Source: a virus. From it: a stretch of 15,042 nt of DNA. The notes below the pieces were generated by a model. The model did no database searches and was not told where the DNA came from. It worked only from the letters and a program-made list of their open reading frames with translations. The stretch is from the UHGV virus genome UHGV-0217160; one strand, given 5' to 3'. Every line of letters begins with the position of its first letter. Within the stretch, counting starts at the first letter, position 1. Shown one piece after another: positions 1-15,042 of the stretch. The position numbers and the translations under genes are program-made.

Positions 1-3620
<3,620 letters not shown>

Positions 3621-3640
<20 letters not shown>

Positions 3641-4940
3641 TCTCCCGCATATTGCCAGCATGGCCTTTAATGAGCCGCTGATGCTTGAACCCGCCTATGC
3701 GCGGGTTTTCTTTTGTGCGCTTGCAGGCCAGCTTGGGATCAGCCGCCTGACGGATGCGGTGTCCGGCGACAGCCTGACTGCCCAGGAGGCACTCGCGACG
3801 CTGGCATTATCCGGTGATGATGACGGACCACGACAGGCCCGCAGTTATCAGGTCATGAACGGCATCGCCGTGCTGCCGGTGTCCGGCACGCTGGTCAGCC
3901 GGACGCGGGCGCTGCAGCCGTACTCGGGGATGACCGGTTACAACGGCATTATCGCCCGTCTGCAACAGGCTGCCAGCGATCCGATGGTGGACGGCATTCT
4001 GCTCGATATGGACACGCCCGGCGGGATGGTGGCGGGGGCATTTGACTGCGCTGACATCATCGCCCGTGTGCGTGACATAAAACCGGTATGGGCGCTTGCC
4101 AACGACATGAACTGCAGTGCAGGTCAGTTGCTTGCCAGTGCCGCCTCCCGGCGTCTGGTCACGCAGACCGCCCGGACAGGCTCCATCGGCGTCATGATGG
4201 CTCACAGTAATTACGGTGCTGCGCTGGAGAAACAGGGTGTGGAAATCACGCTGATTTACAGCGGCAGCCATAAGGTGGATGGCAACCCCTACAGCCATCT
4301 TCCGGATGACGTCCGGGAGACACTGCAGTCCCGGATGGATGCAACCCGCCGGATGTTTGCGCAGAAGGTGTCGGCATATACCGGCCTGTCCGTGCAGGCT
4401 GTGCTGGATACCGAGGCTGCAGTGTACAGCGGTCAGGAGGCCATTGATGCCGGACTGGCTGATGAACTTGTTAACAGCACCGATGCGATCACCGTCATGC
4501 GTGATGCACTGGATGCACGTAAATCCCGTCTCTCAGGAGGGCGAATGACCAAAGAGACTCAATCAACAACTGTTTCAGCCACTGCTTCGCAGGCTGACGT
4601 TACTGACGTGGTGCCAGCGACGGAGGGCGAGAACGCCAGCGCGGCGCAGCCGGACGTGAACGCGCAGATCACCGCAGCGGTTGCGGCAGAAAACAGCCGC
4701 ATTATGGGGATCCTCAATTGTGAGGAGGCTCACGGACGCGAAGAACAGGCACGCGTGCTGGCAGAAACCCCCGGTATGACCGTGAAAACGGCCCGCCGCA
4801 TTCTGGCCGCAGCACCACAGAGTGCACAGGCGCGCAGTGACACTGCGCTGGATCGTCTGATGCAGGGGGCACCGGCACCGCTGGCTGCAGGTAACCCGGC
4901 ATCTGATGCCGTTAACGATTTGCTGAACACACCAGTGTAA
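3621..4940 (+). CDS. C: Capsid maturation protease / minor capsid protein C-type (S49/ClpP-like), GTG start
   Basis: The ORF track opens at 3507, but the lambda C N-terminus (TAELRNLPHIASMAFNEP...) begins at GTG 3621, preceded by GAGGAGAAGA. The C-terminal part is the Ala/Gln-rich scaffold-like region. Stop TAA at 4938-4940. Confidence 0.85.
4335..4940 (+). CDS. Nu3: Scaffolding protein Nu3-type (in-frame internal start within C)
   Basis: In-frame ATG at 4335 (MDATRRMFAQKVSAYTG...) sits where lambda Nu3 starts inside the 3' part of C. Called from established lambda gene organisation, not from an independent signal in the sequence. Confidence 0.5.
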   Translation: MDATRRMFAQKVSAYTGLSVQAVLDTEAAVYSGQEAIDAGLADELVNSTDAITVMRDALDARKSRLSGGRMTKETQSTTVSATASQADVTDVVPATEGENASAAQPDVNAQITAAVAAENSRIMGILNCEEAHGREEQARVLAETPGMTVKTARRILAAAPQSAQARSDTALDRLMQGAPAPLAAGNPASDAVNDLLNTPV

Positions 4941-4949
4941 GGGATGTTT

Positions 4950-5282
4950 ATGACGAGCAAAGAAACCTTTACCCATTACCAGCCGCTGGGCAACAGTGAC
5001 CCGGCTCATACCGCAACCGCGCCCGGCGGATTGAGTGCGAAAGCGCCTGCAATGACCCCGCTGATGCTGGACACCTCCAGCCGTAAGCTGGTTGCGTGGG
5101 ATGGCACCACCGACGGTGCTGCCGTTGGCATTCTTGCGGTTGCTGCTGACCAGACCAGCACCACGCTGACGTTCTACAAGTCCGGCACGTTCCGTTATGA
5201 GGATGTGCTCTGGCCGGAGGCTGCCAGCGACGAGACGAAAAAACGGACCGCGTTTGCCGGAACGGCAATCAGCATCGTTTAA
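4950..5282 (+). CDS. D: Head decoration protein, lambda gpD-type
   Basis: [110 protein letters not shown]. The ORF track starts two codons earlier at 4944; the lambda-type start is the second ATG. Confidence 0.9.
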
Positions 5283-5337: not shown

Positions 5338-5613
5338 ATGTCGATGTACACAACCGCCCAGCTGCTGGCGGCAAATGAGCAGAAATTTAAGTTTGATCCG
5401 CTGTTTCTGCGTCTCTTTTTCCGTGAGAGCTATCCCTTCACTACGGAGAAAGTCTATCTCTCACAAATTCCGGGACTGGTAAACATGGCGCTGTACGTTT
5501 CGCCGATTGTTTCCGGTGAGGTTATCCGTTCCCGTGGCGGCTCCACCTCTGAATTTACGCCGGGATATGTCAAACCCAAGCACTTAGCATGGCTTTCTGA
5601 GGCTTTCGTGTAG
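5338..5613 (+). pseudogene. E: Major capsid protein E (lambda-type), truncated after codon 82 and fused to 9 unrelated codons
   Basis: MSMYTTAQLLAANEQKFKFDPLFLRLFFRESYPFTTEKVYLSQIPGLVNMALYVSPIVSGEVIRSRGGSTSEFTPGYVKPKH matches the lambda E N-terminus, then LAWLSEAFV-stop. Full-length E is ~341 aa, so about 75% of the gene is missing. The break coincides with the start of the island. Confidence 0.85.
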
Positions 5614-5745: not shown

Positions 5746-6981
5746 ATGGCTGGCGAGAACAAACTGAGCGACAAAGCGCTTAAAGGATATCTGGGGAAAC
5801 CCAGAGAAAAGCAGATCACCATTGCTGATGGAAAGGGGCTTTCTATTCGTGTGAGTACCAAGGGGGCTGTGAGCTTTGTTTTCTTCTACAGGTTAGCAGG
5901 TGGCCGGGCTGCTCCGGTCTGGCTAACGTTGGGTAAATATCCTGATATGTCACTCAAACAGGCAAGGGAAAAGCGCGACGAGTGCCGTGGTTGGTTGGCT
6001 GACAAACGTGATCCGCGTATCCAGATTAAGATTCAGGCTGAAGAACGCTTAAAGCCGGTCACAGTGGAGGATGCACTAAATTACTGGTATGAAAATTACT
6101 GTAAGGTGCGTCGTAAAACTCATGCTGTAACGCTTGGCAGATTTCGAAAGCATATCTTTCCCTATATCGGTCATTTGCCCGTAAATGACACTCACCTATA
6201 TGAATGGCTGGACTGTTTTGACCGAATTAAACGTAATGCACCAGTTATGGCGGCGTATGTTTTTTCTGACACTAAATTAGCTCTTCGTTTTTGTCGGGTA
6301 CGCCAGTACGCGACGTGTGATGCTTTAAAGGATTTGCGCATGAGTGATGTGGGGCAGATTGCAGGTAAGCGGGATCGGGTTCTGGATGAAGCCGAACTCG
6401 GCCAGCTCTGGAAGGCAATTTTTGTCGAGCCTGATTTAAAACTAATGTCTGAATACACGCGAAAAATGTTTGTGCTTTGTACAGTATTTGGATGTCGAAT
6501 GAGTGAAGCCCGATTATCAGAATGGAGCGAATGGGATCTCGAAAGTTGGGTTTGGACTGTACCAAAAGATCACTCAAAAACTGGTGTTGAAATCGTCAGA
6601 CCAGTACCTGAAATTCTACGACAGTGGGTAACGGATGTTCACGAAGAGACAAAACATACTGGTTATGTGCTGGGAAGTCTGCGAATTAGAGAAAGCGTAA
6701 GCAAGATTGGGGGGAAAATCGGTAAACGTTTGGGCCATGAAAAACAATGGTCACTACACGACCTTAGAAGAACGCTATCTACTCATCTAAGTGATCTCGG
6801 TGTTGAATTTTATGTAGTAGAACAACTGTTAGGCCATGCGCTACCTGGCGTGGCGGGTGTTTATAACCGGAGTAAGTTTATGGCTAAAAAACTGGATGCT
6901 CTGGAACTCTGGACTACATATCTCAATAGCATCGCAGGTGCTGATTCAAAAGTGACAATCCTCAAACAAAAGGCTGGTTAA
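5746..6981 (+). CDS. int: Tyrosine integrase, P4-type (N-terminal arm-binding domain plus C-terminal catalytic domain)
   Basis: MAGENKLSDKALKGYLGKPREKQITIADGKGLSIRVSTKGAVSFVFFYRLAGG... is a typical P4-family integrase N-terminus. The C-terminal region contains HDLRRT...LGH...GVYNRS, consistent with the R-H-R-Y catalytic set. The ORF track start at 5695 is a 5' extension. Confidence 0.9.
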   Translation: MAGENKLSDKALKGYLGKPREKQITIADGKGLSIRVSTKGAVSFVFFYRLAGGRAAPVWLTLGKYPDMSLKQAREKRDECRGWLADKRDPRIQIKIQAEERLKPVTVEDALNYWYENYCKVRRKTHAVTLGRFRKHIFPYIGHLPVNDTHLYEWLDCFDRIKRNAPVMAAYVFSDTKLALRFCRVRQYATCDALKDLRMSDVGQIAGKRDRVLDEAELGQLWKAIFVEPDLKLMSEYTRKMFVLCTVFGCRMSEARLSEWSEWDLESWVWTVPKDHSKTGVEIVRPVPEILRQWVTDVHEETKHTGYVLGSLRIRESVSKIGGKIGKRLGHEKQWSLHDLRRTLSTHLSDLGVEFYVVEQLLGHALPGVAGVYNRSKFMAKKLDALELWTTYLNSIAGADSKVTILKQKAG

Positions 6982-6982
6982 C

Positions 6983-7207
6983 ATGAAAAAAATGGCAATT
7001 GTTGATAAAAAGGGTCTGGAGTACAATCCTAACATCGATCGTATGATCCGTGAGAAAGAATGTCGGGAGCTAACCACTCTTGCGAACAGCACACGCTGGA
7101 AGCTGGAGAAGGAAGGAAAATTTCCTAAGCGGATCAAGATTGGTGCTACAGCTGTGGCGTATCGCCTCTCTGAAATTCAGGCATGGATTAAAGGGGATTG
7201 GAAGTAA
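6983..7207 (+). CDS. alpA: AlpA-family (Phage_AlpA / MerR-like HTH) transcriptional regulator
   Basis: 74 aa; RELTTLANSTRWKLEKEGKFPKRIKIGATAVAYRLSEIQAWI matches the AlpA helix-turn-helix-wing signature. It lies 1 nt after the int stop, the conserved int-alpA arrangement of P4-like elements and Gram-negative PICIs. Confidence 0.85.
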   Translation: MKKMAIVDKKGLEYNPNIDRMIREKECRELTTLANSTRWKLEKEGKFPKRIKIGATAVAYRLSEIQAWIKGDWK

Positions 7208-7239
7208 TTTTAATTATTTTTTATACGGTAGGAATAAGA

Positions 7240-7995
7240 GTGGACTATATAAGCGAAGTTGTTTTGGATAAAGTTGTGAATGAACTTGCAACAAGGGCTA
7301 AAAATGCAAGGAGAGCAAGGGCTCTAATAGGTATGACTATAATTTCTGTGGCCGTAATTCTTTCTGCGTTTATTTCCTATAGACTAACTGATGACTTTTC
7401 ATTAAAAGGGTTTAGAAGTGGTTTGTTCGCTTCTACAATTTCAAATGGATTCAATGATACATCGGGAATACGTGAAGCGTTTAATCTGGAACTATTAAAT
7501 GTATTTCCAGAAACATCGAAGAGTGATTCGATTGCCAAGTTGTTTTCTCAATTAGATGGAGGAACTCCTCAGTCTAGTGGTGAAAATGAAGTATTAAAAA
7601 AAATTACTAAGGAAGAGAAAGACGAAGCTCTTTCTTATGTAAGTAAATTGGTTGATTACTATGTCAAAGTTGCCGCAGCTGAAAATGGACGTCCGGTTAA
7701 CAAAACAGATAATACATATAGTAGTTTGATTAGTTCATTAGCTCTTTCAGCAGGTGCTGTCGGATTTGTATTATATATCTTACAGATAGCAGTTAGTTTT
7801 GTGCGTTATTACTCTAGACTGGCTGAGTTATATGACTCTCAACGGACTGCGTTAATTGCATCTGACGGCAATGTCGAAACGGCAAAAATACTTATGGATA
7901 TATTATCAAATGATCATGTCGGTTTGGGAAAAGAACCAACTACTTTATATGGAAAAGCATTAGATGTAATTGGCGAGGTTGCAAAGTCAAAATAA
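7240..7995 (+). CDS. Hypothetical membrane protein with two predicted transmembrane helices (AT-rich cargo gene)
   Basis: Open frame 7198-7995. Likely start is GTG 7240 preceded by TAGGA (a TTG at 7198 is the alternative). Hydrophobic segments MTIISVAVILSAFISY and LISSLALSAGAVGFVLYILQIAVSFV flank a ~115-aa hydrophilic loop. Hand-counted sample lines are about 35% G+C against about 60% in the lambda-type genes. No recognisable family. Confidence 0.6.
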   Translation: MDYISEVVLDKVVNELATRAKNARRARALIGMTIISVAVILSAFISYRLTDDFSLKGFRSGLFASTISNGFNDTSGIREAFNLELLNVFPETSKSDSIAKLFSQLDGGTPQSSGENEVLKKITKEEKDEALSYVSKLVDYYVKVAAAENGRPVNKTDNTYSSLISSLALSAGAVGFVLYILQIAVSFVRYYSRLAELYDSQRTALIASDGNVETAKILMDILSNDHVGLGKEPTTLYGKALDVIGEVAKSK

Positions 7996-8019
7996 TACTT
8001 GCGAAGGGGGGCGTTTTTG

Positions 8020-8220
8020 ATGTCCCTCCTGTATATTTATCGAGAGGAAAAATATAATTTATTTGGTTGTGGTTTTACTTTTAAATATATGGTGGACCAT
8101 TATTGCTCAAGGTTTTTATACATGGCTTGTAACTTAAAGACTTTCTGTCAACCCCGTACTTTGAAATCTGCACGGTCGCATTCCGTAATTGTTCTTTGTC
8201 GTTCTTGCGAGGTGTGGTGA
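8020..8220 (+). CDS. Possible small Cys-rich ORF (66 aa) downstream of the 2-TM gene
   Basis: ATG at 8020 preceded by AAGGGGGG (spacing 8). Product MSLLYIYREEKYNLFGCGFTFKYMVDHYCSRFLYMACNLKTFCQPRTLKSARSHSVIVLCRSCEVW has 6 Cys. It lies in AT-rich DNA where chance ORFs are easy, so low confidence. Confidence 0.2.
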   Translation: MSLLYIYREEKYNLFGCGFTFKYMVDHYCSRFLYMACNLKTFCQPRTLKSARSHSVIVLCRSCEVW

Positions 8221-8268
8221 TACATCTCTCATGTCAGTTGTTTTTTGACCGTGGGAACATAAAACAAA

Positions 8269-8287
8269 GGCGACAAGAATAGTCGCC
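8269..8287 (-). terminator. Candidate intrinsic terminator for the leftward RHH-SWIM operon
   Basis: GGCGAC-aagaata-GTCGCC stem-loop. On the minus strand it is followed by a U-rich run (complement of 8255-8268 AACATAAAACAAAG), about 70 nt beyond the SWIM gene stop. Confidence 0.35.
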
Positions 8288-8356
8288 AGTGGCATAACAC
8301 TAAACTTAAGCGTATTCAGAATACCAAGTTGTAGGCTGATGGAAAATAGAATTAGT

Positions 8357-8713
8357 TCAATATTTAGGTGGTTCTACAAGAGCGTTTATCATTGCTCTCA
8401 AATTATCTCGGACACTTATCCAAGTCTGTTCTGCTCGTTCTAATTCATCAGTGTACAGCTTTAATGTTTTATCTATGCCATATGTGGCTATTAAATTTAT
8501 AGCTTCTTGTAACTTTTCGGGGTTATTCCTTCTTGGGGGCGTAAATATACCTCGGATTTTTCCGGTGATTAAAGCTTTACGGTGTCTGCATAGAATACCT
8601 TTACTTCCAGCAGGACAATTACAAGTCATGATTAGCGAGCCAGAATCGTTTGATACAGTGACTATGTATACATCCAAACTACTGCTACTTGTTGCGAAGA
8701 ATTCGTATTTCAT
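8357..8713 (-). CDS. SWIM-type zinc-finger protein (hypothetical)
   Basis: 118 aa; contains C-N-C-PAGSKGIL-C-R-H (CxC-x8-CxH), the SWIM zinc-finger signature. Strong SD (AAGGAG, 8 nt upstream on the minus strand). Sits 27 nt downstream of the RHH gene in the same orientation. Confidence 0.6.
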   Translation of the reverse strand: MKYEFFATSSSSLDVYIVTVSNDSGSLIMTCNCPAGSKGILCRHRKALITGKIRGIFTPPRRNNPEKLQEAINLIATYGIDKTLKLYTDELERAEQTWISVRDNLRAMINALVEPPKY

Positions 8714-8740
8714 GTTTTAGCTCCTTGAATTCAGGTATTC

Positions 8741-8935
8741 TTATCCTTTTGGTTCAATTCCGCGACGTAGCAGCTCTTTGCGCCCTAATTCTTTAAGCCA
8801 GTTGGCTAGGCTTACCCCATCGTTACTGGCTTCGTTATCAAACTGCTCCTTCAATTCAGGAACTATGCGCATATGGAACGGTGGGGCCTTTCCTGTGCCT
8901 TTTGGTTTTTTATCGCGCTTAATAATCGTTGACAT
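8741..8935 (-). CDS. Arc/Mnt-like ribbon-helix-helix DNA-binding protein (candidate repressor)
   Basis: 64 aa; PPFHMRIVPELKEQF followed by ASNDGVSLANWLKELGRKEL parallels the Arc repressor beta-strand and helix A (PQFNLRWPREVLDLV...ENGRSVNSEIYQRV). Its start codon abuts the palindromic operators. Confidence 0.65.
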   Translation of the reverse strand: MSTIIKRDKKPKGTGKAPPFHMRIVPELKEQFDNEASNDGVSLANWLKELGRKELLRRGIEPKG

Positions 8936-8991
8936 GTGTACACCTATAGCGTTATGTTTTTATTCGATAGGTGTACACCTTAACACGTGTG
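8934..8991. promoter_or_regulatory. Divergent control region with two copies of a 12-bp palindromic operator (core GTGTACAC) plus an ACACGTGT palindrome
   Basis: ATGTGTACACCT at 8934-8945 (one mismatch from perfect) and the perfect palindrome AGGTGTACACCT at 8969-8980, centres 35 bp apart; ACACGTGT at 8984-8991. Located between the leftward RHH gene and the rightward small-ORF/primase operon. Confidence 0.5.
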
Positions 8992-9074
8992 CATTTAAAA
9001 ACGCAACGCCCCGCAGTGCGGGAACACATGCAGGGCGTCTAACCACCAACGATAGCAACAGTATCGAGGTAGCT

Positions 9075-9278
9075 ATGAGAAATCATACCACACACCCGCA
9101 AGGGCGGGACTCGCACAACCTGAATAAATACATCTGGCGTTTTATCGCCCTGAGCACCGCACAACCACGCGTAATACACATCGAGGCCGCCAGCGAACAG
9201 GAAGCCCGACTGCAATCCCCAACTGGCTACGTGATGATATTCGCCGCCCGTATTCGTCAGGAGGTGTGCCATGAATGA
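9075..9278 (+). CDS. Hypothetical protein (68 aa), first gene of the primase operon
   Basis: ATG 9075 with GAGG 6 nt upstream. The stop overlaps the next start (ATGAATGA). The track's 8778-9278 ORF is a 5' over-extension running antisense through the RHH gene. Confidence 0.45.
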   Translation: MRNHTTHPQGRDSHNLNKYIWRFIALSTAQPRVIHIEAASEQEARLQSPTGYVMIFAARIRQEVCHE

Positions 9279-9495
9279 TCTTTATTTTAAAGTGCTGACA
9301 CATGCTGAAAACGCGCTCGTTTGTGGCAAAAATATGCGAGAAATCTTATCAACCTGGCTTGATGGGACAACAAATGCGGAACACGATGAACGGGATGCTA
9401 ATTTAGCTGGAGCGTTAATTACGTTACTTGATCCTGTCATCAAAGAGCTGGATGAAGCTATAAAAATACACGACCAGAGCTATACCGGAGAATAA
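9271..9495 (+). CDS. Hypothetical protein (74 aa)
   Basis: ATG 9271 with AGGAGG 8 nt upstream; translationally coupled to both neighbours. No family recognised. Confidence 0.55.
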   Translation: MNDLYFKVLTHAENALVCGKNMREILSTWLDGTTNAEHDERDANLAGALITLLDPVIKELDEAIKIHDQSYTGE

Positions 9496-9497
9496 AA

Positions 9498-9785
9498 ATG
9501 AAAAATAAATTTTCTGGCTTTATTGCCAGCGGTCAAACTCATTCAAAAATCAGCCTTGGGGATATTTTCAAAGATAGCTATGGCTATCGGGTAAAGATTA
9601 TTTCGGTTGATGATCGCCGTGTCTCTTATTTGCGTGATGGTTATGATTTTGAATGTGTTATGCCGCGTCAGCAGTTCGAAAGAGATTTCATTCTGGTAAA
9701 AAATTGCAAGACAGATAATCAGAGGCGTTCCGCAGGCTATATCCGCAAAATTCGGGCAATGTTAGTTGCCGGAGGTAACAAATGA
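9498..9785 (+). CDS. Hypothetical protein (95 aa)
   Basis: ATG 9498 with GGAGA upstream; stop overlaps the primase start (ATGA). No family recognised. Confidence 0.55.
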   Translation: MKNKFSGFIASGQTHSKISLGDIFKDSYGYRVKIISVDDRRVSYLRDGYDFECVMPRQQFERDFILVKNCKTDNQRRSAGYIRKIRAMLVAGGNK

Positions 9786-11602
9786 AACGTGCTCCGAACT
9801 TAAAATACCAACCGCGCGACAAAATGACAGAAGTCATCATTTTTGCTGGCAGTGATGCCTGGAGCCATGCAAAAGAATGGAATGAATGGGCGGGTAAGCA
9901 TATTGCAGCAGATGATACACCACCAGTAATTCTGGGTACGGAACAACTGGAAAACCTGGATGATATGCAAATTATCGATGAAGGCCGTCATTATGTGCGT
10001 GTTTATCGTGCCGGAAAGATCGCAGAGAAAAATCTGACGAAGGTTGCGACATTACTTGCTATTGCAGGCGTAAAGGAAGCACGTTGTTACCGTAGCTTTG
10101 TTGATCGAGAGCCTGAAAACTGGACTCCGCGCCTTGTCGGCCTAAAAGCTGAAGCGGAGCATGGGGAAAGTCTGGTGATTGAACTGCCAGTGAAGAAGGC
10201 TGAGCGCAAAAATGACGAGCGTGCTTCATCTTTGGCGTTGAATCAGATGGGGGCCAGCCAGCGCGGTGAAGTTCTCCTTGCACATTACGGCGGCGAACTG
10301 GCAATCAATGCCGACTCTGACACCGTTCATCATTACAACGGCGTTGTATGGGAGCCGGTTCAGGATAAAGAGTTACAGCGTGCTATGGCGCAGATTTTCA
10401 TTGATGCGGAGATCAGCTATTCGCAGAACGCCATTAAATCGGCGGTAGATACCATGAAGTTAAGTTTGCCTGTAATGGGGAATACAGCCCGTAACCTGAT
10501 TGGATTCAGTAACGGGGTATTTGATACCAGAACTGGTAATTTTCGGGAGCATAACAAAAACGACTGGTTGTTAATTGCCAGTGAATTACCTTTCAGCCCA
10601 CCAGCAGAGGGGGAAACGCTGGCAACACATGCGCCGAATTTCTGGAAGTGGTTGCGCCGTTCGGTGGCTGAGAATGACCGCAAGGCAGATCGCGTACTGG
10701 CGGCATTATTCATGGTGCTGGCGAACCGGTACGACTGGCAGTTATTCATTGAGGTAACAGGGCCGGGGGGAAGTGGTAAAAGTGTGATGGCGGAGATTTG
10801 CACCATGCTGGCGGGTAAGGCTAATACAGTATCAGCAAGCATGAAGGCGCTGGAAGATGCAAGGGAACGTGCGTTAGTGGTTGGCTTTTCGCTGATTATC
10901 ATGCCGGATATGACCCGCTACGCTGGTGATGGGGCAGGGATTAAGGCCATTACAGGCGGTGACAAGGTGGCAATTGACCCGAAACACAAAGCCCCCTATT
11001 CAACGCGTATTCCGGCAGTAGTGCTGGCGGTTAACAATAACGCCATGTCATTCAGTGACCGCAGCGGGGGGATCTCACGTCGTCGGGTGATATTCAATTT
11101 TTCGGAAGTTGTACCGGAGAACGAACGCGATTCGATGCTGGCGGAAAAAATAGAAGGTGAGCTGGCGGTAGTGATTCGTCATCTGCTTACACGGTTTGCT
11201 GATCAGGACGAAGCCAGACGCCTGTTATATGAGCAGCAGAAATCTGAAGAAGCACTGGCGATAAAGCGAGAGGGGGATTCGCTGGTGGACTTCTGCGGCT
11301 ATCTCATGGCATCGGTAATGTGTGATGGCCTGTTAGTGGGTAATGCTGAAATTGTGCCATTCAGCCCACGCAGGTATCTCTATCATGCCTATCTGGCTTA
11401 TATGAGGGCACATGGGTTTGGTAAACCTGTAACACTGACGCGCTTCGGTAAAGATATGCCGGGGGCAATGGCGGAATATGGCAGGGAGTATATGAAACGG
11501 AAAACGAAGCACGGTTTGCGTTCAAACGTGACACTGACGGAGGAATCAGAAGACTGGATGCCATCATGTGTATCGGTCACTAATGACGATAGCAAAAATT
11601 AA
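9782..11602 (+). CDS. Phage/plasmid primase-helicase, P4-family (D5/SF3-type NTPase domain)
   Basis: 606 aa; Walker A GPGGSGKSV and a Walker-B-like hydrophobic stretch ending in D (LIIMPDM). Size and position (after int/alpA, immediately before the iteron ori) match the pri/rep gene of P4-like elements and PICIs. Confidence 0.85.
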   Translation: MKRAPNLKYQPRDKMTEVIIFAGSDAWSHAKEWNEWAGKHIAADDTPPVILGTEQLENLDDMQIIDEGRHYVRVYRAGKIAEKNLTKVATLLAIAGVKEARCYRSFVDREPENWTPRLVGLKAEAEHGESLVIELPVKKAERKNDERASSLALNQMGASQRGEVLLAHYGGELAINADSDTVHHYNGVVWEPVQDKELQRAMAQIFIDAEISYSQNAIKSAVDTMKLSLPVMGNTARNLIGFSNGVFDTRTGNFREHNKNDWLLIASELPFSPPAEGETLATHAPNFWKWLRRSVAENDRKADRVLAALFMVLANRYDWQLFIEVTGPGGSGKSVMAEICTMLAGKANTVSASMKALEDARERALVVGFSLIIMPDMTRYAGDGAGIKAITGGDKVAIDPKHKAPYSTRIPAVVLAVNNNAMSFSDRSGGISRRRVIFNFSEVVPENERDSMLAEKIEGELAVVIRHLLTRFADQDEARRLLYEQQKSEEALAIKREGDSLVDFCGYLMASVMCDGLLVGNAEIVPFSPRRYLYHAYLAYMRAHGFGKPVTLTRFGKDMPGAMAEYGREYMKRKTKHGLRSNVTLTEESEDWMPSCVSVTNDDSKN

Positions 11603-11615
11603 ACTTATGGAATAA

Positions 11616-11847
11616 CTGTTCACCACTGTTCACCCTGTCATAAATATCTTTTATATCAGTATATTATAGGGTGAACAGTTATTTATGAACTGTTCACCAA
11701 ACTATTCACTGTTCACCTTTTTGATTGTTTATTGAGCTTCAAGGGTGAACAGTGGTGAACAGTTGGTGAATAGTTTTTGTGAAACTGTTCACCCATTAAC
11801 ATTATGAATTAAAAGAGAAAATATCAAAAGGTGAACAGGTGAAGGGT
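11616..11847. repeat. Iteron-type replication origin: 9 perfect and at least 1 degenerate copy of GGTGAACAG in both orientations, with an AT-rich unwinding block
   Basis: CTGTTCACC at 11616, 11626, 11690, 11709, 11785; GGTGAACAG at 11670, 11744, 11754, 11830; GGTGAATAG at 11765. Tandem copies have 10-11 bp periodicity. AT-rich stretch at 11635-11669. Directly downstream of the primase gene. Confidence 0.8.
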
Positions 11848-11889
11848 TAAAACGCAAAAATTTTAATTTACTGCTGTGAGATAAAGCCT

Positions 11890-12135
11890 ATGACAGCGAA
11901 GCACACAAAAAAATCACAATCGCACGCCCTTGATTTGACGGAACACTGGTTAAGGGTGTCGATAAAAATCATCGACCGCAACGCCGGGGAAGGTTACGCG
12001 AAAGCACATCCCGAACTGATTAGCGCATTCATGACAACGGCGGCTGCAAACTTTGCCACTCTGACCGAACGGGAGATTGCTGAAGCGGAGGAAGTGACAA
12101 CAATCAATATTAAGTCCGGAGAGCAGGCAGCATGA
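11890..12135 (+). CDS. Hypothetical protein (81 aa)
   Basis: ATG 11890; stop overlaps the start of the SSB-like gene (ATGA). No family recognised. Confidence 0.5.
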   Translation: MTAKHTKKSQSHALDLTEHWLRVSIKIIDRNAGEGYAKAHPELISAFMTTAAANFATLTEREIAEAEEVTTINIKSGEQAA

Positions 12136-12581
12136 CGGCGCAAATATCAGTTTACGGGCGGTTGGTGGACGACCCGCAGACAAAACAGACCAGCAAGGGC
12201 ACCCCCATGACGCTGGCGCGTATGGCGGTATCACTGCCCTGCAGTCAGTCGGATGACGGTCAGGCGACGATGTGGTTATCTGTCCTGGCGTTTGGCAGAC
12301 AAGCCGACGCGCTGGCAAAGCATCACAAAGGCGAACTCCTGAGCGTGGCGGGTAACATGCAGATGAGCCAGTGGACTGGACAGAACGGCGAAACGCGGCA
12401 GGGCTGGCAGGTTATCGCAGACAGCGTAATCAGTGCGCGATCGGTGCGACCGGGCGGCAATAAAGGCCAACAGGGGCAGGCTACTGACGCACTGAACAGA
12501 GCAAAACAACAGGCAGATCAGCAAGGAAGCCAGCCACCAGTGGGAGATAATGAGCAATGGGGAGATGATATCCCGTTTTAA
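12132..12581 (+). CDS. Single-stranded DNA-binding protein-like (OB fold with SSB-type acidic C-terminal tip)
   Basis: 149 aa; N-terminal region resembles the SSB OB fold (ISVYGRLVDDPQ...MWLSVLAFGRQADALAKHHKGELLSVAGNMQMSQWTGQNGETRQGWQV), followed by a Gly/Gln-rich linker and the C-terminus DDIPF, as in E. coli SSB. Confidence 0.7.
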   Translation: MTAQISVYGRLVDDPQTKQTSKGTPMTLARMAVSLPCSQSDDGQATMWLSVLAFGRQADALAKHHKGELLSVAGNMQMSQWTGQNGETRQGWQVIADSVISARSVRPGGNKGQQGQATDALNRAKQQADQQGSQPPVGDNEQWGDDIPF

Positions 12582-12797: not shown

Positions 12798-13838
12798 ATG
12801 GTTGATTTATATTCGCCTACTCAGCTTGTACAGGTGGTTAATGCTGTAGATGTACAAAAACAACTAAATGCGTTGTTTACCAGTTTGTTTTTTACTCGCT
12901 CGGTAATGTTTGAATCGCGCGATATTATTCTTGATACAATCGACGATCCAAATATCCCAATTGCAGCATTTTGTTCTCCTATGGTGGGTAGTAAAGTTTC
13001 ACGTGACGAAGGGTACGAATCAAAAACAATTCGTCCAGGCTATATGAAGCCGAAAAGCAGCATTGATCCAAATAAGTTAGCTGTGCGCCCTGCTGGTGTA
13101 TCACCTGAGCAATACAATGCTTTTGGGGCGCGTAATATTAAAGTTAAACAGGCGATTGTAAATCAAGCTAAAGCTATTCGTGCACGTATTGAATGGCTTG
13201 CCGTTCAGGCAATCACAACGGGGAAAAATATCATTGAGGGCGATGGTATTGAACGTTATGAGCTGGACTGGAATATTAAACCACAAAATATCATCACTCA
13301 GTCTGGCGGTGCTGAGTGGTCAGGTAAGGATAAAGAAACTTTTGATCCAAATGATGATATTGAGAGCTACGCAGAATTTAGTGAGGGCGTCACTAATATC
13401 ATCATTATGGGCGGTAATGTATGGAAGAAATACCGTTCATTCAGAGCGATAAAAGAGGCTCTGGATACCCGTCGTGGTTCTAATTCCGAACTGGAAACGG
13501 CCCTTAAAGACCTTGGTGATTCGGTGAGTTTTAAAGGATATATGGGCGATGTTGCGATTGTTGTTTACAGCGGGCGTTATACCGACGAGGACGGAACTGA
13601 AAAACATTTCCTTGATCCTGATTTGATGGTGCTTGGCAATACGGCTCTTCAGGGGATTGTCGCCTATGGCGGTATTCAGGATCCGGAGCTAATCCGAATG
13701 GGGCTGACTAAAGCCGAACTTGCACCGAAAAACTATATTGTGCCTGGTGATCCTGCTATTGAATATGTGCAGACACATTCAGCACCACAGCCAATACCGG
13801 CCCGCATCAATCGTTTTGTTACCGTTCGCATTGGCTAA
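12798..13838 (+). CDS. Major capsid protein, lambda gpE-family (HK97-fold), diverged island-encoded paralog
   Basis: 346 aa from ATG 12798 (AAGAGGA upstream), which aligns with the lambda E start. Alignable end to end with lambda E: MVDLYSPTQLV / MSMYTTAQLL; GYMKPK / GYVKPK; ITQSGGAEWSGKDKETFDPNDDIESYA / ITQSGGTEWSKRDKSTYDPTDDIEAYA; DTRRGSNSELETALKDLG identical over 14 of 18; GDVAIVVYSG identical. The track ORF from 12585 is a 5' over-extension through the hairpin. Confidence 0.88.
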   Translation: MVDLYSPTQLVQVVNAVDVQKQLNALFTSLFFTRSVMFESRDIILDTIDDPNIPIAAFCSPMVGSKVSRDEGYESKTIRPGYMKPKSSIDPNKLAVRPAGVSPEQYNAFGARNIKVKQAIVNQAKAIRARIEWLAVQAITTGKNIIEGDGIERYELDWNIKPQNIITQSGGAEWSGKDKETFDPNDDIESYAEFSEGVTNIIIMGGNVWKKYRSFRAIKEALDTRRGSNSELETALKDLGDSVSFKGYMGDVAIVVYSGRYTDEDGTEKHFLDPDLMVLGNTALQGIVAYGGIQDPELIRMGLTKAELAPKNYIVPGDPAIEYVQTHSAPQPIPARINRFVTVRIG

Positions 13839-13847
13839 GGGGGAGCA

Positions 13848-14189
13848 ATGGCTACTCATTACACTGAACTCATGGCTGGCACTGAAGCACTGGTGACTAC
13901 GCTGGGGATATTTTCAGCTAATAAAGGGGTAATTCCTGCATTTACGCCACTGATGCAGGAAGATGCAACAGGTGCACTGGTAGTATGGGATGGTTCGAGC
14001 GTAGGTAAAGCGGTTTATGTTTCCGCTGTACAAATCGACACCGCGAAAAAAACACAGGCTCAGGTCTATAAGACAGGTGTCTTAAATGTTGATGCTCTGA
14101 ACTGGCCTGAGTCTGTTAAAGAACTGTCAGTAAAGGTTGCAGCGTTTGTTGGCTCAGGTATTTCTGTTCAGCCGCTGGCTCGTGTGTAA
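13848..14189 (+). CDS. Head decoration protein, lambda gpD-family, diverged island-encoded paralog
   Basis: 113 aa. AFTPLMQEDATGALVVWDGSSVGKAV...VYKTGVLNVDALNWPE...AAFVGSGISV aligns with lambda [27 protein letters not shown]...[16 protein letters not shown]...[11 protein letters not shown]-rich SD AAGGGGGAG. Immediately downstream of the E-like gene, the same D/E pairing as lambda but in reverse order. Confidence 0.8.
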   Translation: MATHYTELMAGTEALVTTLGIFSANKGVIPAFTPLMQEDATGALVVWDGSSVGKAVYVSAVQIDTAKKTQAQVYKTGVLNVDALNWPESVKELSVKVAAFVGSGISVQPLARV

Positions 14190-14200
14190 AGGGGGATACA

Positions 14201-14584
14201 ATGCAGAATGATTACAATGACCTTAAGCCAATTGCCGAAATGATGTACCCGAATCAAGCTGTAGAGGAATTAAAAGCTATCGCTGACAAAATGTGTTTAA
14301 GCGAGCGCCTTGTTGATATGAATCAGGTGATGGAAATTACAACCCTGAGTCGTCGTACACTGCTAAACCTTGAGGCTAGTGGAGAGTTCCCGGAGCGTGT
14401 GCAGGTTACGGAAGGGCGTAAGGCCTGGTATTTAAGTGAAGTGATCGACTGGATAAATAATATTCCTCGCGCTTCTGAATATTGCCGCGTACCTGTCCCA
14501 AAAAAGCCAGATGCGGCGCTATGCCTCAAGATTGAGCGTGTACGCCGCAATGCACGGGATGGTCGCTATAAGCTGATTGGTTGA
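14201..14584 (+). CDS. AlpA/MerR-type winged-HTH DNA-binding protein encoded immediately upstream of cos (candidate packaging specificity or regulatory factor)
   Basis: 127 aa; MEITTLSRRTLLNLEASGEFPERVQVTEGRKAWYLSEVIDWI matches the AlpA HTH-wing pattern and parallels the Nu1 N-terminal HTH (LADIFGASIRTIQNWQEQGMPVLRGGGKGNEVLYDSAAVIKWY). SD AAAGGGGGA, like the D-like gene. Stop is 27 nt before cosQ-type sequence. Confidence 0.7.
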   Translation: MQNDYNDLKPIAEMMYPNQAVEELKAIADKMCLSERLVDMNQVMEITTLSRRTLLNLEASGEFPERVQVTEGRKAWYLSEVIDWINNIPRASEYCRVPVPKKPDAALCLKIERVRRNARDGRYKLIG

Positions 14585-14610: not shown

Positions 14611-14810
14611 GGGTCCTTTCCGGCGATCCAGAACGTTACGGGGCGTCAGGCGCGCAGTTTTTCGCTATTTGTGAAAATTTTCCTGTTTAAGGCGTTTCCG
14701 TTCTTCTTCGCCGTAACTTAATGTTTTTATTAAAAACACCCCCTAAAAAGAAAGGAAACGACAGGTGCTAAAAACAGGCTTTTTGGCCTCTGTCGTTTCC
14801 TTTCTCTGGT
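14611..14810 (+). other. cos: cos packaging site, lambda-type: cosQ, cosN (variant 12-nt cohesive-end sequence) and cosB (R3, IHF-site region, R2, R1)
   Basis: GGGTCCTTTCCGG...GTTACG (cosQ side), then by homology the nick site between 14640 and 14641 with predicted overhang GGGCGTCAGGCG (lambda: GGGCGGCGACCT, as recalled). R3 CGTTTCCGTTCT at 14693-14704, R2 GAAAGGAAACGACA at 14749-14762, R1 TGTCGTTTCCTTTCTCT at 14791-14807. Confidence 0.8.
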
Positions 14811-14829
14811 TTTGTCCGTGGAATGAACA

Positions 14830-15042
14830 ATGGAAGCCAACAAAAAGCAGCTGGCTGACATTTTCGGTGCGAGTATCCGTACCATTCAGAACTAGCAGGA
14901 GCAGGGAATGCCCGTTCTGCGAGGCGGTGGCAAGGGTAATGAGGTGCTTTATGACTCTGCCGCCGTCATAAAATGGTATGCCGAAAGGGATGCTGAAATT
15001 GAGAACGAAAAGCTGCGCCGGGAGGTTGAAGAACTGCGGCAG
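14830..15042 (+). pseudogene. Nu1: Terminase small subunit Nu1-type, interrupted by an in-frame TAG at codon 22; 3'-partial at window end
   Basis: ATG 14830: MEANKKQLADIFGASIRTIQN, then TAG (14893-14895) where lambda Nu1 has Trp, then QEQGMPVLRGGGKGNEVLYDSAAVIKWYAERDAEIENEKLRREVEELRQ in the same frame to the window end. AGGAG at 14897-14901 precedes the in-frame ATG at 14908. Confidence 0.75.

Follow-up and report, generated by a model that had tools for sequence, protein, structure and literature searches.

A common amber allele in the Nu1-family small terminase gene of an E. coli helper-embedded PICI is probably a tolerated loss-of-function variant of an accessory gene

The closest described relative of the element analysed here is 11capE, the type HE-PICI of E. 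coli NRG857c (Tommasini, Mageeney & Williams 2023, PMC10111431). Only for 11capE in NRG857c has it been proven experimentally that induction of the helper leads to excision and replication, and the HE-PICI papers describe 11capE without a terS gene. Elsewhere, "terS homologs" were noted in some Gram-negative PICIs in 2018 (Fillol-Salom 2018, PMC6092414), and PICIs of the EcCICFT073 type encode Rpp proteins that redirect phage packaging (Fillol-Salom 2019, PMC6739421; PDB 6HLK, 6HN7). The TerS-S proteins of pac-type SaPIs represent the same strategy as the gene studied here, in which a satellite carries its own small terminase gene, but no large one, beside its own packaging site. We analysed a viral genome of 15,042 nucleotides (UHGV-0217160, hereafter the window) that ends within a Nu1-family gene interrupted by an amber codon. 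This gene is part of an ~11 kb helper-embedded PICI of the 11capE type and not of a phage. Elements of this type have been published before and terS genes of satellites are known as well; the TerS subgroup and its amber allele are new. In contrast to the pac-type SaPI proteins, this TerS is of the cos-type Nu1 family and is interrupted in the window, and its role here is a prediction from sequence.

The window aligned with the corresponding region of the E. coli E1 chromosome over its full length, without gaps and at 99.6% identity; window coordinates equal those of the E1 locus (L001) minus 2441. The best match of the helper part among complete genomes was 99.1% identical, and the last 483 bp of the window were found at 100% identity in several chromosomes of a set of 5,426 complete E. 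coli genomes. The E1 lambdoid prophage possesses its own intact TerS and TerL, followed by W, portal, C and D, all upstream of the island. A 246-bp N-terminal fragment of gene E comes next, then the ~11 kb island, the remaining gene E and the tail genes. The two gene E fragments translate as contiguous E over the junction (...GYVKPKH / EVNPQMT...), and the integration site is E:Phage_cap_E:80. The window covers the left ~9.5 kb of the satellite. In E1, where both E fragments are present, the tyrosine integrase gene adjoins the interrupted late gene E of the prophage and is co-oriented with it. The first half of the island encodes this integrase, AlpA and a hypothetical protein, then SWIM and HicB proteins on the other strand, and Icd-like and DUF4222 proteins; the second half encodes primase, SSB, an E-like capsid protein, a D-like decoration protein and a 127-aa AlpA-family protein (AlpA-127), followed by cos, the TerS gene with its stop and a DUF2971 gene on the opposite strand. 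All PICI zones were found, namely int with AlpA, the Bro zone, primase with SSB, and a late zone with capsid genes (Table 1). Beyond the satellite TerS gene of E1 lie the oppositely oriented DUF2971 gene and then the 3' part of helper gene E, and no A/terL gene follows. The original prediction had taken the interrupted gene for the phage's own Nu1. It is the satellite's, and the E1-type prophage carries intact Nu1 and A upstream.

The satellite shares with Eco567.11capE of E. coli NRG857c the site in a lambdoid capsid gene E and a like gene order (int, AlpA, Bro zone, primase, SSB, capsid, decoration, AlpA-127, cos). DNA identity is ~96% across the AlpA-127 gene and cos, and the variant cosN is identical. 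The two elements differ 3' of cos: in Eco567.11capE, only ~12 Nu1 codons are left, which run into unrelated sequence with HEPN and DUF262 genes beyond it, whereas the window has a full-length Nu1-family gene with an amber codon, and DUF2971 comes next. The Bro zone of the present element contains genes for a SWIM zinc-finger protein and a HicB-family antitoxin (8357-8935, minus strand), with HicA not annotated. This zone is wholly different in the satellites of strains S1-KEN and 95-3322 despite their common late module. The composite of 95-3322 also shows decay, in that its helper has an internal stop in the head protease gene C (L025 5528-6844).

Table 1. Features of the window discussed in the text, in window coordinates
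Feature	Position	Strand	Basis or remark
Helper prophage head genes: terL (3' part), W, portal B, C protease, D	1..5282	+	ORFs, E1 annotation
Helper gene E, N-terminal fragment (attL side)	5338..5583	+	C-terminal fragment lies beyond the window, past the DUF2971 gene
Satellite integration, Bro and replication zones, integrase to SSB	5746..12581	+ (SWIM, HicB minus)	E1 annotation with offset, ORFs
Satellite major capsid protein (E-like, 346 aa) and head-decoration protein (D-like, 113 aa)	12798..14189	+	Phage_cap_E, HDPD
127-aa AlpA-family HTH protein, just 5' of cos	14201..14584	+	Pfam Phage_AlpA, E = 7.5e-9; PDB 8c3t, E = 2.2e-9
Satellite cosN 12-mer GGGCGTCAGGCG	14641..14652	+	Differs from canonical GGGCGGCGACCT at 5 of 12 positions; aligned to lambda DE3 and helper cos
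Lambda-type cosB: R3 ~14693-14708, R2 ~14750-14765, R1 ~14790-14805	14693..14805	+	Near-identity to lambda DE3 cosB
Satellite Nu1-family TerS gene with W22amber	14830..15042	+	Runs past the window end; 552 nt in E1
TAG, codon 22	14893..14895	+	One G-to-A change from sister TGG
AGGAG, 6-nt spacer and ATG (Met27), possible re-initiation site	14897..14910	+	Sequence, anti-SD energy

The Nu1-family ORF starts at an ATG (14830-14832, plus strand), continues in the frame MEANKKQLADIFGASIRTIQN and is then broken by the TAG at codon 22 (14893-14895). The codons 3' of the stop read CAG GAG CAG GGA ATG and contain an AGGAG (14897-14901) placed 6 nt before an in-frame ATG (14908-14910, Met27), which itself lies 12 nt past the TAG. 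All these features had been described in the original prediction and can be read directly. Its inference that TGG had become TAG also holds, since codon 22 is TGG in lambda-type Nu1 (phage DE3) and in the intact sister alleles described below, as does its GAA for codon 24 of lambda: comparison with phage DE3 confirmed that the GAG of the window creates the AGGAG. From Met27 the frame contains no stop up to the window end, its E1 counterpart comprises 157 codons, and the Met27 ORF scored 215.9 bits against Pfam Phage_Nu1 (PF07471), for which the cut-off is 30. The N-terminal winged-HTH DNA-binding domain is broken by the TAG and is whole in the sister alleles. The anti-SD duplex energy is -6.6 kcal/mol at the Met27 site, compared to -3.3 kcal/mol at the native start and -5.0 kcal/mol with the GAA of lambda. 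With the stop 12 nt upstream and this SD sequence, re-initiation at Met27 is plausible. Codon 3 (14836-14838) is GCC, giving Ala in the satellite TerS where lambda has Val, and V3I figures among the mutations by which lambda TerS evades Rpp interference (PMC6739421 Table 1).

The amber codon is real and common. The identical 81-mer (14830-14910) was found in 17 of the 5,426 complete E. coli genomes. The sources of these 17 span several continents and comprise humans, a swan, a frigatebird and the sediment of a frog farm. NCBI labels the gene "terminase small subunit, internal stop" in each of the 11 TAG genomes for which annotation was retrieved, E1 included. The exact 157-aa Met27 ORF occurs on 162 public contigs from several sources, compared to 156 for the commonest intact 183-aa protein, and the TAG allele is present in 3 IMG/VR contigs. 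Altogether, ~500 public contigs have the gene. With these independent genomes and contigs in agreement, a sequencing or assembly error, one of the alternatives in the original prediction, was discarded as the source of the TAG, and we give it virtually no chance. In the databases, the 157-aa Met27 ORF appears under many accessions, BEB30344.1 among them, with the name "terminase small subunit".

We consider that the TAG probably arose recently and abolished the function of an accessory satellite TerS whose loss is tolerated, although the wide occurrence of the allele speaks against this. The allele accounts for 17 of the 32 complete genomes having this TerS and for ~1/3 to 1/2 of all copies, and its contig count is slightly above that of the most frequent intact protein. 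It also resides on at least two satellite backbones and in different helper prophages. The TAG satellites of E1 and S1bESBLb are of one common type; that of S1-KEN has a different AlpA and primase and is flanked by prophage genes resembling those of DLP12; the copy in PSJ-16 is a deleted remnant inside a Qin-like prophage. In PSJ-16, the satellite decoration gene has been joined by a deletion to a fragment of helper terL (L003 4742-5192).

The stop codon could also be leaky. Read-through of the UAG, or a host amber-suppressor tRNA (CUA anticodon), would supply full-length TerS at a low level and make the allele a dosage variant. This possibility fits the single stop in an otherwise perfect ORF, and the base next to the stop is a C, UAG-C being a comparatively weak terminator in E. 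coli. However, basal read-through is typically very low, and no tRNA gene was found in the 34.5 kb E1 composite. The 17 natural isolates look unrelated and come from several continents and hosts, so that suppressors in all of them are implausible. We therefore regard leaky full-length synthesis as very unlikely.

Intact alleles were then compared with the TAG allele. For eight of the 32 complete genomes with this TerS, the sequence confirmed an intact gene (95-3322, 980-2, ECA64, PEB20, EC21Z-147, E203449, 184/2aE and A37). The allele shared by 95-3322 and 980-2 (WP_032348759.1) differs from the window gene solely at nt 65, where G has become A and TGG has become TAG. GAG at codon 24 was seen in the intact TGG alleles of 95-3322, ECA64 and E203449; other intact alleles have GAA, as does lambda-type Nu1 (phage DE3). 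Met27 is likewise found in lambda-type Nu1. Because GAG24 exists in intact alleles and Met27 in lambda Nu1, the AGGAG and the ATG are older than the stop. Creation of the SD as compensation for the stop was thus rejected, and the "strengthened SD" that the original prediction had tied to the stop is not connected with it. By contrast, the plain inactivating mutation that it had named among its alternatives has become the best-supported reading, as intact alleles lie one base away and the gene is often absent from relatives (see below).

The intact sister gene encodes a 183-aa TerS composed of two parts with different histories. Residues 1-100, which comprise the DNA-binding winged HTH and the coiled coil, are ~98% lambda-like. 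Amber aside, residues 1-98 differ from lambda gpNu1 (PDB 1J9I; 6HN7 chain B) at two positions, V3A and Q78L. Synonymous divergence of this N-terminal part from lambda-type genes is 0.046, which indicates that it was probably exchanged with lambda-type phages recently. The gene also occupies the same place as lambda Nu1, directly 3' of a lambda-type cosB, and belongs to the same Pfam family Phage_Nu1. Unlike the phage gene, which is followed by terL, it has no terL after it and carries the amber at Trp22. The last 84 residues, the part responsible in lambda gpNu1 for self-assembly and gpA binding, are different: residues 100-183 are at most 41-42% identical to any TerS among ~50,000 phage records. 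They are 72% identical to the TerS of chromosomal Citrobacter PICIs, with saturated synonymous sites and a pN of 0.16. The homologue search with this domain returned 8 proteins, including those of the Citrobacter PICIs and Klebsiella homologues. Judged from these comparisons, the C-terminal domain is of old origin and conserved, and it is known to date from satellites only. The 84 residues are coded at 2430-2678 of the 95-3322 locus (L005), equivalent to ~15130-15381 in window coordinates.

The Citrobacter PICIs have the same late module (capsid, decoration protein, AlpA-127, cos, TerS), and the PICI of ETEC-2264 has this module too, yet with another Nu1-family TerS and another cosB. Both, like the intact sister alleles, have a satellite terS without terL next to the element's own packaging site. 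In the A37 satellite (L009 1870-2679), the cosN, the cosB and the TerS N-terminus have been swapped for the helper's canonical-cosN, 21-type versions, and the satellite-specific C-terminus of TerS has been kept despite this swap. The A37 arrangement shows that the cos-terS regions of satellite and helper have recombined as modules.

The reading that the original prediction had preferred is a functional N-terminally truncated TerS. It would be made by re-initiation at Met27, comprise 157 aa, lack the HTH and retain the wing, the coiled coil and the satellite C-terminal domain, and it would act on the helper terminase, with suggested roles as a dominant-negative protein or as an adaptor biasing packaging. 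The anti-SD pairing at Met27 exceeds that of the native start, and the downstream frame is whole in all 11 TAG alleles inspected. The frequency of the allele in several satellite and helper backgrounds and the age and conservation of the C-terminal domain favour such a role as well. The same SD and ATG weigh on the loss-of-function reading, in that an HTH-less product is probably made. However, the SD and ATG are already present in intact alleles and nothing in them is purpose-built. The truncated protein would also lack residues 11-13 of helix 1, which are part of the dimer interface of the DNA-binding domain (PMC9026076). Relatives discard the whole gene and do not retain its C-terminal part. 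Some of the short Klebsiella homologues (113-132 aa) are frameshifted or truncated, and the copy that was inspected together with its surroundings is part of a remnant without other satellite genes. A Met27 product is mechanistically plausible, and nothing points to selection for it; with a difference of one base from intact alleles, private changes that are all missense (see below) and ~9/10 of relatives without the gene, the truncated TerS as preferred reading was not upheld. We judge a functional truncated TerS to be improbable, and the specific proposal that an HTH-less TerS, as a natural dominant-negative or adaptor, engages the helper terminase and alters how packaging is shared between helper and satellite to be slightly more doubtful still.

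The Rpp proteins provide a precedent for PICI proteins that sit at this position and act through the helper TerS. The satellite TerS and the Rpps are alike in their position just 3' of a PICI cos, in an N-terminal winged HTH related to TerS, and in being part of satellite packaging by a lambda-like terminase. The likeness does not extend to the sequence: the match to RppC (6HLK) has an E-value of 0.053 and covers 48 HTH residues only, with no meaningful similarity, and an Rpp identity of the satellite TerS was rejected on this basis. The Rpps are proteins of 139-154 aa without a TerS-like C-terminus, whereas the satellite TerS is a Nu1 homologue over its full length. Helper-type R sites are missing from PICIs with an Rpp but present in this satellite, as lambda-type R3, R2 and R1. 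The upstream 127-aa HTH protein was also considered as an Rpp and rejected, being of the AlpA family. If the truncated reading were true, an HTH-less TerS could be an evolutionary intermediate between satellite TerS and Rpp-like hijackers.

Constraint after the stop was examined on the 11 TAG alleles. Their private changes are 4 missense and 0 synonymous: G34D (WP7, LST200A), E144G (SCU-102), D179N (200177) and N180K (S1bESBLb). Among 17 alleles compared, the changes past nt 252 are just the four private missense ones. For codons 27-183, 76% of the possible non-stop changes are missense. Four missense changes out of four would thus arise with a probability of 0.34 if evolution were neutral, and of 0.02 if the long-term dN/dS of 0.19 applied. 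The pattern weakly favours relaxed constraint, as would be expected of an allele that has lost its function, and it counts against a truncated TerS under selection. Nevertheless, four substitutions have little power, and polymorphisms at the tips are missense-rich even in functional genes. No second stop or frameshift was found in the 11 TAG alleles inspected. This intactness can be held against a knockout, and it fits a recent event.

We next considered whether satellites of this kind need the gene at all. The adjacent AlpA-127 gene was found in 373 complete genomes and this TerS in only 32, and ~9/10 of the E. coli satellites with an AlpA-127-type gene have no copy of this TerS. Among 57 IMG/VR loci with the satellite cosN, ~32 do not read into a Nu1-family TerS past the cos region; 5 of these ~32 have only the 11capE-type stub, and cargo lies 3' of cos in the loci inspected. 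The others comprise ~9 loci with another Nu1-type TerS, 5 with the intact gene, 3 with the TAG allele and a few cut by contig ends. The cargo in the slot 3' of cos varies, and this TerS counts as accessory. The interval from cos to attR is hypervariable, with DUF2971 here (L001 17929-18687), HEPN and DUF262 in 11capE (L002 3888-5604) and unrelated ORFs elsewhere (L028-L084), and its cargo may consist of defence-type genes.

Repeated loss or replacement of the gene in related satellites could alternatively mean that its loss is selected, the intact protein being harmful to the embedding helper or costly. The share of TAG among all copies would agree with this, and in an HE-PICI the satellite and the helper are linked physically, so that harm to the helper is harm to the composite. 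On the other hand, interference by the intact protein is only postulated, the frequency of the allele could result from clonal expansion of host lineages, and intact alleles coexist with TAG alleles in near-identical satellites. An adaptive knockout thus appears about as improbable as a functional truncated TerS. A neutral loss remains the reading that we prefer, and we infer that the TAG allele lacks function, is neutral and could persist since it affects an accessory gene.

The packaging site provides a reason to expect a use for the satellite TerS. The gene lies directly 3' of cosN and of a cosB with conserved R3, R2 and R1 sites, names that we assigned on the assumption that established lambda knowledge applies here. 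Canonical GGGCGGCGACCT is kept in all six embedding helper prophages examined, and the satellite cosN differs from all six. The variant cosN 19-mer was found at 57 IMG/VR loci, mostly satellites; three of these loci (L038, L072, L083) are true lambdoid phages, in which lysis genes, the variant cosN, lambda-type Nu1 and gpA come in this order. The helpers of E1 and S1bESBLb (L001 1575-2380 in E1) combine a 21-type cosB with a naturally hybrid TerS, whose DNA-binding domain is of the phage-21 type and whose C-terminus is lambda-type, in contrast to the satellite (14640-14830) with its lambda-type cosB. Satellite and embedding helper therein appear mismatched in packaging specificity. According to the established lambda/21 specificity, a 21-type helper should not recognise a lambda-type cosB, and therefore the satellite's own TerS would seem useful, or even needed, there, which is a further point against a harmless knockout. 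The TerS type of the window's own helper is inferred from E1 and S1bESBLb, the closest genomes. Against such a need, the helpers of S1-KEN, PSJ-16, 95-3322 and 980-2 have a lambda-type TerS, and their cosB is of the same type as the satellite's. The E1 genome also has a second lambda-type Nu1 copy elsewhere. The original prediction had further proposed that the truncation, taken together with the upstream HTH protein and the variant cosN, may point to rewired packaging specificity. What stands of this is a separate cos/HTH/TerS packaging module at the level of the element, in which the sister TerS is intact; as the preferred explanation of the amber allele it does not hold.

The course of events that we favour would begin with an intact satellite late module, in which capsid, decoration protein, AlpA-like protein and cos were followed by the Nu1-family TerS. 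A single G-to-A transition would then have made Trp22 (TGG) amber in this lineage, most likely with loss of the full-length DNA-binding TerS. With lambda-type R sites in the satellite cosB, any helper TerS of lambda specificity could start packaging at the satellite cos, and many related satellites appear to have exchanged this gene for cargo already. Ribosomes halted at the TAG may re-initiate at Met27 and produce an HTH-less fragment, which would be a by-product of the pre-existing SD and ATG and not an evolved feature.

As a common nonsense allele of an accessory gene whose design-like features were inherited, the TAG allele in itself matters little, and its recognition averts over-reading. 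This also concerns annotation, as the truncated Met27 form is spreading in the databases through gene callers as though it were a normal protein. HE-PICIs of the 11capE type have been described without terS, but a subgroup of them does have a Nu1-family TerS with a satellite-specific C-terminus. The TGG, TAG and deleted alleles of this gene, present with lambda- and 21-type helpers, constitute a natural genetic series on the packaging of cos satellites.
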